From positions 1 through 64,000 of the forward strand of contig MTLP01000002.1 in NCBI GenBank assembly GCA_002009975.1: a DNA stretch of 64,000 nucleotides, given 5' to 3'. The stretch's first letter is position 1, and every line of letters starts with the position of its first letter. A program made the translations under genes and the position numbers. This DNA comes from Thermococcus sp. JdFR-02 (GTDB lineage: Archaea; Methanobacteriota_B; Thermococci; Thermococcales; Thermococcaceae). The notes beneath the pieces were generated by a model that was not told the DNA's origin, searched no databases, and saw only the letters and a program-made list of their open reading frames with translations. Of the stretch, positions 2,190-7,030 are shown piece after piece.

Positions 2190-2352
2190 AACTAAGAGTT
2201 GAGTTCGTTTCATTGTAACTTGGCCTTTCAATTTAATGTCGATTTTTGTTCAATCTCTTACTCAGCTTTCTTTTGGCTATAATAACTAATAAAACTATAG
2301 TCTAAAAAAATTATTATTTAAAATAGAAAAAATAAATTAACTAAAGCAGAAG

Positions 2353-2366
2353 GAAAAATTTATATA
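2353..2366 (+). promoter_or_regulatory. BRE/TATA promoter of the 2416-3849 cassette
   Basis: GAAAAA followed by TTTATATA about 50 nt before the TTG start; SD AGGTGA at 2404-2409. Confidence 0.5.
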
Positions 2367-2415
2367 TCCTGGGAGTTTAAGATACAGGTGTAAAAAATCT
2401 GGTAGGTGATGCCAA

Positions 2416-2946
2416 TTGCAATGGAAGAAATTGTTAAGTTTAGTGTTGGGAGTATTGGCTTTAGCGGCTACTACAGAAATTGCGAGTGCAGAGAAAATTA
2501 TAAAGTCAAATGAAGGGGACATTATACCTGGTCCTTTTACAGAATGGAGAATAGTGGACTCGTATGTATATACAATAAATTATGGACCATGGGTAGAAGA
2601 AGTAAGGCATACATGTTATACCACTAGCTGTAGCGTAAAAAAGACCATAAGCCACTGCAGTGAAACTGTTCTCTGGGGTACAGTAAAAGTGTCTAAATCA
2701 GAGATTAAAGCAGAGGTGGGGTTTTCTATAGGAGAAGAAGATTGTGAAAGTATTAGCTGTAGTGCAACTTGTAATTACGGAGAGACACTTATCCTATATT
2801 GGAGGTATAGACAACCAGTTTATAAAATCATTCAAAGAAAATATATAGTAGATGGATTTGGCAGAGAATATGCAACAGATGAGTATGCCTATGCTTATGC
2901 GAGACAGGAATGGACACCAGAATGTAAGAGCATAGCTACAAGGTGA
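2416..2946 (+). CDS. Secreted Cys-rich beta-strand protein, putative aerolysin/ETX-MTX2-like fold
   Basis: Signal peptide (KK, hydrophobic core, ASA cleavage site), 7 Cys, amphipathic hairpin WGTVKVSKSEIKAEVGFSIG; TTG start with SD. CDS call is firm, fold is inference. Confidence 0.7.
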   Translation: MQWKKLLSLVLGVLALAATTEIASAEKIIKSNEGDIIPGPFTEWRIVDSYVYTINYGPWVEEVRHTCYTTSCSVKKTISHCSETVLWGTVKVSKSEIKAEVGFSIGEEDCESISCSATCNYGETLILYWRYRQPVYKIIQRKYIVDGFGREYATDEYAYAYARQEWTPECKSIATR

Positions 2947-2952
2947 AGAACA

Positions 2953-3849
2953 GTGAAGAAACACTTAGAAGAAAAGATTTATTCAGCGTCTGTAATAATT
3001 ATTTCATTTGTCCTCTTTTCATCTCTTTTAATTGGAATTTATTCTCATAAAATTTCAGAACGAAAATTAGAAAGCACTGGTACATTTATCAGCGAACACC
3101 TAGCCTATGTATATGCAAGTCCAAACGAGACTATAGAAGCAACAATCTATTGGTGTCCTTTAAGATTAGAAAAAAATACTAGTATAACTGCATATGCTCC
3201 AAATCTCAATTCGTGGGTTAAATACAGGGGGAAAGAACTTAAGCGATCTTCTCGTGGATATTTTGAATTACAGATACCAATAACTCCTTGGTATATAGGG
3301 ACTTACGAACTCAGAAACTTAAAGTTAAATGTTTCTATCTGGACCTCAAACACTAAACAAAAATTGATACTTCCTTTTGGGAACTGGAGTTTTGAAGTTG
3401 TATTTAATACCTCTTCCGATTTATTAATTACGGAATTTAATTCAAAAATTTTCACAGTAGAAGAAGCTACCAAACTTATAGCCTATGAGATAGGATTATT
3501 CAATCCTACAGATAGAAATATCTATGTCACAAATATTGCCTATAATCTTAATGCCTCAAAAGTCAGAACTATCGCGATAGCTTGTTACAATGCAACATCT
3601 ATTCTTAACTTACCTTCAATACATAATGCTTCAGACATTCCAGAAAACAATATTCTTCCTGTGACAGGGTGTCTAATTCCATCACGAGAAAAAAGATACA
3701 TTGTTGTTTATATTAAAGTGAATCCCTCTGTAAAAATGCTTTTATTAAGACCAAAAATAGAGTACAAAATAGATAATAGAACTCGTTTTATGCCAGGAGG
3801 AATAATGGAATTTACAAGAGTCCAAAAATCGTGTATGAGCCAATCTTAA
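2953..3849 (+). CDS. Hypothetical membrane-anchored extracellular protein
   Basis: One N-terminal TM helix, many N-x-S/T sequons, beta-rich; 6 nt after the upstream gene. Confidence 0.75.
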   Translation: MKKHLEEKIYSASVIIISFVLFSSLLIGIYSHKISERKLESTGTFISEHLAYVYASPNETIEATIYWCPLRLEKNTSITAYAPNLNSWVKYRGKELKRSSRGYFELQIPITPWYIGTYELRNLKLNVSIWTSNTKQKLILPFGNWSFEVVFNTSSDLLITEFNSKIFTVEEATKLIAYEIGLFNPTDRNIYVTNIAYNLNASKVRTIAIACYNATSILNLPSIHNASDIPENNILPVTGCLIPSREKRYIVVYIKVNPSVKMLLLRPKIEYKIDNRTRFMPGGIMEFTRVQKSCMSQS

Positions 3850-4135
3850 GAATTATTTTTGATGTACTATCCGCAGATTTTTATAATTTTTATCTTCTTT
3901 TTGATTCTCTAACTTATTCTCACAGGAACAAATATCACTCTTCACCAAAAATTCTTAAGGATGGTGAATATTCTTTAAGCCAGAATGCATAGTCTTAATA
4001 TCCATCACGAGGCAAGATTTATAAAAGGAGACTAAAATGTTAGCTCTGAATATAAAAACTTAAGGGGAAGATTTAAATAAGCTTAAGCTTGAAGCTTGGT
4101 TAGAACTAATTACGATAACCTAAGGAGGGATAGGA

Positions 4136-4291
4136 ATGGCAAGATATAAGCCACTTGCAAAGAAGCTTCGCTTGGCTAAAGCGGGTAAGCAAAATAGGAG
4201 AGTTCCCGTTTGGGTAATTATTAAAACAAACAGAAAAGTTATGACGCATCCAAAGAGAAGATACTGGAGGAGGACAAAGCTTAAGGAGTGA
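4136..4291 (+). CDS. rpl39e: 50S ribosomal protein L39e (not in the ORF track)
   Basis: Manual translation [51 protein letters not shown]; directly upstream of rpl31e. Confidence 0.97.
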
Positions 4292-6112: not shown

Positions 6113-7030
6113 CTAAAAGTCCTCCTTTTCCTCCATTTTCACTTCAAATTTCAACTCTTCTTTAACATCCCGCTTAAATGGCAAATCCAAAGCTAGTCTA
6201 AGGACAAAAATACCATGTCCTGCTATTACTCTTCCAAGCTTAAGATTTCTTAGAAGGTTTTGAGGATCTAAAAGATTATAGTGCGAGATTACAAGTATAG
6301 GCTCATTAAAGAATCTGTATTCAAAATTTGCAACATCTCTGGTTTCTGTTATTTTCTCCTTAACTTCAACCTTTCCCTTTGCTATCAATTCCACTTTTGC
6401 TTTTCTTGCCTTGCTCAAGTTAGCTTGTAAATAACCTCTAAACCCATTTTCAATTGGACTAATCCTCAACTCTGCAAAGTCTTCTTGGGTAGAAACGCTT
6501 AAAGTCTCTTGGGGGAACTCCAATCTATAACTTGGCAAAGCGTAGAGAATTACAATATCTTTAAATTCTTCATCCAAAACCCTAACTCCTGATAGGTATA
6601 TCTTTCCAGAGCCGTCTTGGGCTATTGCAAGAAAGAAAGGTTTAACTTCTAAAGTTATCTCCGCCGTTTCCATTTCTCTGTGAGATATAAACTCCCTACT
6701 GACATGATAACTCCTGCTTCTACCACTAGAATGCCACTCCCCAGTAGCTTTAAAGTATCCTTCCTCTACTTTTAATGGCTTTGAAAAGGTTAGTTTATCT
6801 TCGTAGATATTAACGTTGCTAATAAACTTCTCAACTTTCTTGGTTGAACTATATGAGGCGATAATCCCAATACCCACTAATAAAAGGAGAAAAATAAAAG
6901 CTCCAAAGACCCAAAGCGGCATTTTTCCTGTTTTTTGAGCAATAACTATGAGCGCAATAATGAAAACTGCAAGGAAAACAACACCAACTACAAGCAATCC
7001 TTTCCTTGTTTTTACAAAGATTGTTCTCAT
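6113..7030 (-). CDS. Hypothetical membrane protein (two N-terminal TM helices, soluble beta-rich domain)
   Basis: 305-aa ORF with typical composition and two hydrophobic N-terminal segments. Confidence 0.75.
   Translation of the reverse strand: MRTIFVKTRKGLLVVGVVFLAVFIIALIVIAQKTGKMPLWVFGAFIFLLLLVGIGIIASYSSTKKVEKFISNVNIYEDKLTFSKPLKVEEGYFKATGEWHSSGRSRSYHVSREFISHREMETAEITLEVKPFFLAIAQDGSGKIYLSGVRVLDEEFKDIVILYALPSYRLEFPQETLSVSTQEDFAELRISPIENGFRGYLQANLSKARKAKVELIAKGKVEVKEKITETRDVANFEYRFFNEPILVISHYNLLDPQNLLRNLKLGRVIAGHGIFVLRLALDLPFKRDVKEELKFEVKMEEKEDF

Follow-up and report, generated by a model that had tools for sequence, protein, structure and literature searches.

We analyzed a window of 64,000 nucleotides from Thermococcus sp. 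JdFR-02 (NCBI GenBank assembly GCA_002009975.1, contig MTLP01000002.1, positions 1 to 64,000 of the forward strand), in which a small gene (2416..2946, + strand, stop codon included) encodes a predicted secreted protein of 176 amino acids with an aerolysin fold in its structural model. It is followed on the same strand by a partner gene (2953..3849) encoding a 298-residue type II membrane-anchored glycoprotein. From the fold of the small protein and the linkage of the two genes, we infer pore activity, oligomer formation, and a protective role of the partner. The small protein would thus be a secreted minimal pore-former, accompanied by a membrane partner that protects the producer or provides a docking site. 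This reading is tentative, and we give it a probability of about 0.42. Together, the structural and genomic data suggest an undescribed weapon-and-shield pair.

The AlphaFold2 model of the small protein has a predicted local distance difference test (pLDDT) score of 94 to 98, in 10-residue blocks, across residues 41 to 176, and of less than 50 at residues 1 to 5 and 14 to 33. Its strands (41-56, 60-66, 71-83, 85-88, 108-120, 124-145, 151-163, and 166-175) and a helix (94-101) form the elongated, twisted multistrand beta-sheet pore module of the aerolysin-type superfamily. A Foldseek search of the PDB returned seven matches with E values of at most 0.001, and each of the 38 matches listed was an aerolysin-fold protein. 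LSL matched at an E value of 4.1e-5, and the others included lamprey LIP, Dln1, parasporin-2, Clostridium perfringens enterotoxin, HA70, epsilon toxin, toad BmALP, lysenin, aerolysin, Cry23, monalysin, and Cry51. A preliminary description, made from the sequence, had proposed just such a check against aerolysin, epsilon toxin, monalysin, and lysenin, and all four are among these matches. In the structure comparison, lamprey LIP (5zu4) scored 7.9, toad BmALP (6lhz) 7.5, C. perfringens enterotoxin (8u5f) 7.1, Mpp75 (7ml9) 7.0, the nontoxic Bacillus thuringiensis crystal protein (2d42) 7.0, epsilon toxin (1uyj) 6.9, and HA-70 (4lo4) 6.9. Two single-module matches, 6lhz (152 residues) and HA-70 (170 residues), are of similar size. 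As modelled, then, the small protein is an aerolysin-fold protein.

Neither the small protein nor its partner had a match above the cutoff in Pfam, NCBIfam, PHROGs, or PADLOC. The Pfam family ETX_MTX2 (PF03318), with a gathering score of 22 bits, was touched by 1 of 33 members of the small-protein family, at an E value of 0.017 that is below the cutoff. The sequence profiles reached only one protein in the PDB, C. perfringens enterotoxin, in its N-terminal pore module (2xh6, 3am2, 3zix, and 8u5f). It was the top match with two of four profiles (A2 and A5) at nonsignificant E values of 0.08 to 0.16. The match lies over the amphipathic segment discussed below, with residues 84 to 107 aligned to an enterotoxin segment that includes GITIG. 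As the aerolysin fold comes without a Pfam match, the protein is a member by fold and not a sequence member of ETX_MTX2 or Clenterotox. The preliminary name of an ETX-MTX2-like protein is thus apt for the modelled fold and does not extend to sequence membership. Weak library matches to DUF6426 (E = 0.063) and phrog_11647 (E = 0.022) led nowhere, and a literature search found "DUF6426" named in no paper.

The open reading frame (ORF) of the small gene is intact and comprises 176 codons from a TTG start, which is the earliest start possible because an in-frame TGA lies upstream at 2407-2409. A GGTGA ribosome-binding site (2405..2409, +) is located 6 nucleotides (nt) 5' of this start. About 50 nt 5' of the start codon, an A-rich run resembling a B recognition element, together with TTTATATA (2359-2366), makes up a candidate archaeal promoter (2354..2367, +). 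A sigma-70 and terminator scan, which is ill suited to archaea, found no excess. Both cassette genes have non-ATG start codons (TTG at 2416 and GTG at 2953), each behind an identical GGTGA; that of the partner (2942..2946, +) extends into the TGA stop codon of the small gene, with 6 nt separating it from the GTG. Two sequencing runs recorded as RNA yielded contigs only, without ends or joints, and in one RNA-recorded run a 140-kb contig matched the depth pattern of the DNA run made from that sample. DNA carryover is possible, and no transcript claim is drawn from these runs. Contigs of metagenome runs X2 and X3 carry a variant of window positions 2200 to 4000 with 26 base differences in about 1,800 nt; protein-altering changes account for 4 of 5 in the small gene and 5 of 13 in the partner, counts too few for a selection test.

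At the N terminus of the small protein, KK is followed by the hydrophobic stretch LLSLVLGVLALAA and then by ASA and EK, between which cleavage is predicted. This is by pattern the layout of a Sec signal peptide (residues 1 to 25; 2416..2490, +) and is retained in relatives, in agreement with the cleavable signal peptide described at the outset. The protein looks like a Sec-exported one with a mature form of 151 residues, and it has no membrane anchor of its own. Elsewhere in the same genome, a secreted protein shares this signal peptide, with 47% identity over residues 2 to 33; it adjoins another secreted protein with a Cys-rich end and then a small membrane protein (locus L002, G000:C6:48078-51173, ORFs 278-1225 and 1378-2424).

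The segment that would enter a membrane is framed by two Ser/Thr-rich strands. The first, residues 71 to 83 (2626..2664, +; assigned by DSSP of the model and by the alignment), holds C72 and C81, and the modelled return strand, residues 108 to 120 (2737..2775, +), holds C110, C115, and C119. Between them lies a conserved amphipathic segment, residues 84 to 107 (2665..2736, +), a candidate membrane-insertion hairpin modelled as the short strand 85-88 and the helix 94-101; it contains TVLWGTVKVSKS (residues 84 to 95) and EIKAEVGFSIG (residues 96 to 106). An alternating polar/hydrophobic hairpin had been claimed here from the single sequence, in which the alternation does not rise above shuffles: its best 12-mer moment was equalled by 119 of 2,000 shuffles, and the alternation of a 23 + 23 residue pair by 2,578 of 5,000. 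It is borne out by the family profile of 33 sequences, where the paired alternation of residues 72 to 94 and 97 to 119 was equalled by 5 of 5,000 column shuffles, and it is in this profile that the superfamily feature of an amphipathic alternating segment between Ser/Thr-rich strands is present. G88 and G102 are invariant (33/33 rows of the family alignment). The hairpin turn formerly placed at residues 95/96 is not seen in the model, whose tip is the short strand followed by the helix.

Cysteines occur at residues 67, 72, 81, 110, 115, 119, and 170, exactly as first listed, and all seven are retained across the archaeal Cys-rich clade. The preliminary description had noted that C72 with C119 and C81 with C110 both sum to 191 and had read this as a common register across one hairpin. 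As a counting argument this is weak, since random 3 + 3 placements give equal-sum pairs in 34% of cases and the sum 182 is likewise found twice (67 + 115 and 72 + 110). The register itself is consistent with the structural model, in which the limits of strands 71-83 and 108-120 add to 191 at both ends (71/120 and 83/108), and with side-chain parity. The alternative register of 182 (67-115 and 72-110) was rejected because the paired residues would face opposite sides of the sheet, whereas register 191 pairs like with like. In that register, C72 would be set opposite C119 and C81 opposite C110, and the flanking strands are probably stapled by these two candidate disulfides. A 25-nt internal direct repeat with 72% identity (window 2614-2638 and 2743-2767) encodes both C-x4-C-S motifs (C67..C72 and C110..C115); either the two long strands bear the mark of an internal duplication here, or the repeat is due to chance.

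Among 1.84 billion representatives searched exhaustively with phmmer, 15 proteins reached E ≤ 0.001, and word-indexed searches added a few further relatives. These fall into three groups: a Thermococcaceae Cys-rich clade, which is monophyletic (support 97/99); Cys-free archaeal paralogs; and secreted Bacillota proteins of 150 to 245 residues in Niallia, Peribacillus, Bacillus, Clostridium, Lacrimispora, Butyricicoccus, and Sarcina. Named members include Pyrococcus horikoshii O59518 and O59550, Pyrococcus sp. NA2 PNA2_0146, and Thermococcus litoralis OCC_13390. All members found so far are annotated as "hypothetical protein," and the identifiers of six of them occur in no paper in the literature searched. 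On the basis of sequence comparison, the small protein founds an unannotated family common to Thermococcaceae and Bacillota. The ESM Atlas returned unnamed Bacillota clusters only (small protein, score of 0.94; partner, score of 0.87), and a tblastn search of plasmids and phages with the small protein gave no match. An N-terminal likeness to Big_9/cadherin-like adhesin repeats (P0013 and P0010) was set aside, as it is a match to a motif of 25 to 45 residues multiplied by repeats, which we do not regard as homology. Many Bacillota members (P0016, P0017, P0023, P0025, and P0027; loci L022 and L024 to L026) carry a C-terminal extension of 30 to 50 residues with a KVEYYE..DG.Y-like motif that is missing from the archaeal proteins, possibly a cell wall-binding or target-binding tail in place of the archaeal partner gene.

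The partner, which does not figure in the preliminary description, has a hydrophobic N-terminal membrane anchor at about residues 9 to 31 (2977..3045, +; a helix spanning residues 2 to 42 in the model) and an ectodomain modelled as two beta-sandwich, immunoglobulin (Ig)-like domains, residues 44 to 150 and 154 to 292 (3082..3828, +). It contains four Cys and nine N-x-S/T sequons. The pLDDT score of its model is 92, and its structural matches are generic Ig-like ones only. Partners carry 7 to 12 glycosylation sequons, versus 0 or 1 in the archaeal small proteins. The Cys contents of the two proteins covary, in that the two conserved partner Cys are missing where the small protein is Cys-free. 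Predictions of the complex between the partner ectodomain and the small protein gave scores (interaction prediction score from aligned errors, ipSAE) of 0.35, 0.00, and 0.00 and were used neither for nor against an interaction.

The family profile of the small gene detected 24 loci in 20 of 97 genomes of the same family, and a homologue of the partner lies directly downstream on the same strand at 23 of these by profile and at the 24th, a diverged one (in G386), by ORF reading. The tight, co-oriented linkage to a membrane-associated gene that is expected of a toxin-plus-immunity pair is thus found at all 24 loci. Spacing between the two genes ranges from a 4-nt overlap to 48 nt at nine measured loci outside the window, and the overlap at L044 is 17 nt. 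The partner family is commoner than the small gene, being found in 31 of the 97 genomes. Nine partner loci (E < 1e-50) come without the small gene, and in all eight of those read the small gene is absent. At one partner-only locus with a missing small gene (L010 346-1220, in G005), transposase-like ORFs lie nearby, and an insertion sequence may therefore have removed it. In two other genomes, partner-family genes lie 3' of secreted repeat proteins of about 420 to 440 residues that take the place of the small gene (L014 2580-3896, -, in G027; L048 15-1265, +, in G365), which suggests that members of the partner family work with different secreted proteins. Given these wider neighborhoods, a general docking protein fits as well as an immunity protein.

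In the window, the cassette sits in an accessory insertion of about 1.95 kb (2190..4135) between a DUF7411/PRK14561 gene (1587-2189) and the gene for ribosomal protein L39e (4136-4291). Two relatives (L039 of G014 and L040 of G003) show the uninterrupted order, in which the DUF7411 gene is followed by L39e, L31e, and eIF6. The G+C content is 0.31 to 0.34 inside the insertion versus 0.38 to 0.40 outside, and no flanking direct repeats were found at its borders. G014, one of the relatives with the uninterrupted neighborhood, has a cassette of its own elsewhere, between the genes for mevalonate kinase and isopentenyl-phosphate kinase. There are at least four contexts in all: this kinase pair, an Alba and PIN-domain neighborhood, kbl (2-amino-3-ketobutyrate coenzyme A ligase), and the DUF7411/L39e insertion. 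With the window protein as query, none of 24 genomes from the other families in the class yielded the small gene, and at 4 of the 24 loci above the gene is decayed. This genomic pattern suggests an accessory, patchily inherited, conflict-like cassette. Farther along the window, at 6113-7030 (-), a gene encodes a 305-residue membrane protein without a family, whose matches to AcrID1 (E = 0.02) and DUF3593 (E = 0.004) are probably noise.

Based on these features, we propose that the small protein may act as a single minimal aerolysin-type module that lacks a receptor-binding domain and would be released outside the cell. In the soluble monomer, segment 84-107 would be tucked on the sheet as a strand and a helix, and such tucked elements in aerolysin-type toxins are thought to refold upon insertion. 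At a target membrane, several copies might assemble into a ring in which segment 84-107 refolds to a beta-hairpin that forms, together with strands 71-83 and 108-120, a beta-barrel pore. The C72-C119 and C81-C110 staples would be compatible with such a barrel because both span one hairpin, the strands of which stay neighbors. The odd seventh Cys leaves room for redox control, which we consider a fair lead and nothing stronger. The partner, which would be cotranslated and located on the producer's own membrane, would most likely protect the cell, either as a binder of the small protein or as a substitute for its receptor. In this view, the pair would constitute an accessory, patchily inherited antagonism cassette.

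A more specific version, a heat-stable, redox-switched minimal pore used in warfare of archaeon against archaeon with immunity by receptor replacement, is improbable as a whole. Under receptor replacement, the partner would be a resistant version of the surface protein on which the pore-former docks, and genomes with partner-family genes alone would be protected cheaters or targets. An odd conserved Cys (C170 or C119) would hold the protein inactive until it is out of the reducing vent fluid.

Several known systems share parts of this arrangement. The insertion segment of C. perfringens enterotoxin is held partly as a helix in the monomer, and the corresponding segment in our model is likewise part helix. 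In contrast to enterotoxin, the window protein is archaeal, has no C-terminal claudin-binding domain, contains seven Cys, has a partner gene, and shows no significant sequence similarity. Members of the ETX/MTX2 family (PF03318; epsilon toxin, parasporin-2, Cry51, Mpp75, and Cry23) likewise place Ser/Thr-rich strands around an amphipathic segment, but they are proteins of about 250 to 300 residues with an added receptor-binding head, and the window protein is smaller and not a sequence member. In lectin-fused modules (LSL, 1w3a; Dln1, 4zno; lamprey LIP, 5zu4; SaroL-1, 7qe4), the pore is aimed by a lectin domain. As the window protein has none, any targeting must reside in the module itself or in a partner. 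In toad BmALP1 and BmALP3 (6lhz and 6lh8), a conserved C-terminal Cys gives redox control by disulfide exchange (PMC7995273). The window protein has an odd number of conserved Cys, including C170 in the last strand of the model. The toad proteins, however, are vertebrate ones with 7% identity, and their regulator is a paralog, unlike the Ig-like membrane protein here.

For the pairing itself, Bacteroidales secreted antimicrobial proteins (BSAPs) offer an analogy. They are toxins of the MACPF family with an adjacent gene for a resistant receptor, and the surface protein family is also present in toxinless strains. The likeness, a secreted protein of a pore-forming fold encoded beside a surface protein of the producer, may serve as a lead only, and BSAPs differ in their MACPF fold and their diderm bacterial hosts. 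Two further candidates proved to be different systems: the module named VARTIG (PMC8416519) and the Thermococcus loci that resemble subtilosin ones (bioRxiv 10.64898/2026.07.27.741052).

A number of observations weigh against a pore-former, and several of them favor a nonlytic surface component, a subunit with a structural, adhesive, or lectin-like role that the Ig-like partner would retain at the cell surface, with disulfides that serve thermostability only. This is the main rival, somewhat less probable than the pore-former. The fold has nonlytic members, such as HA70 in the botulinum progenitor complex; HA70/HA3 (4lo4 and 3win) and the 26-kDa, nontoxic B. thuringiensis crystal protein (2d42) are nonlytic, and BmALP3 itself forms no pores, and the fold alone is therefore no proof of pore formation. 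No part of the family is more conserved than segment 84-107, with its two invariant Gly, and strong conservation is unusual for a lipid-facing hairpin. The simple staple picture is strained by the odd Cys count and by the Thermococcus sp. 4557 group, which lacks C119 yet has C72. The partner family also extends beyond the small gene, with members behind other secreted proteins (L014 and L048) and stand-alone shorter paralogs, as expected of a general surface dock, and the small protein brings no anchor of its own. Points against a surface component are that the small gene is often lost or broken while its supposed anchor stays, that the distribution is patchy and the contexts vary, and that Bacillota relatives have no partner beside them (six of nine loci read). 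Furthermore, typical archaeal surface proteins are rich in glycosylation sequons, and the archaeal small proteins are nearly free of them.

The sequence-level tests also weigh against a pore-former, as none of them was significant. Pfam ETX_MTX2 had no match to the window protein at E ≤ 1 and none genome-wide at E ≤ 10; the Pfam Clenterotox (PF03505) hidden Markov model had none at E ≤ 10 in five member-holding genomes; an hhalign comparison of the family profile with five proteins from a single genome (G100), four of which are ETX_MTX2 matches, gave a probability of 1.4%; and the enterotoxin match is missing with profiles A1 and A3. Together with the low template modeling (TM) scores and high root mean square deviations of the fold matches, this could mean that the match is a coincidence of a long twisted beta-sheet and that the protein acts away from membranes, for example, by binding glycans or metal via its Cys. 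We consider such a role hardly likely. Less likely still is a two-component toxin in which the partner is not a protector but a shed or presented helper without which there is no activity, in the way that the aerolysin-fold Cry23 depends on Cry37. The N-terminal anchor of the partner looks uncleaved, partner-only loci are common, and the Bacillota relatives, if active, do without a partner.

Among the papers open to our search, Methanosarcinaceae are the only archaea for which aerolysin-like genes are named (PMC3110756). A search for aerolysin together with Pyrococcus or Thermococcus found no paper on such a Thermococcales protein, judged mostly by title. The aerolysin-type kind is already known. 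What is new here is the sequence family, the 151-residue single module, the clade-wide pattern of seven Cys, the hyperthermophilic archaeal hosts, and the obligatory Ig-like membrane partner.

If the small protein does form pores, an ancient toxin fold would work at about 80 to 100°C and might work on archaeal membranes too, and the pair would be the first protein antagonism system of such a kind in Thermococcales, as well as a source of a pore scaffold that is very small, heat stable, and braced by disulfides. The warfare reading, if true, would make the pair the first beta-pore-forming toxin system shown to act on ether-lipid, S-layer-covered cells. If the small protein forms no pores, its strict pairing with an Ig-like membrane glycoprotein would still represent a new two-gene surface module.
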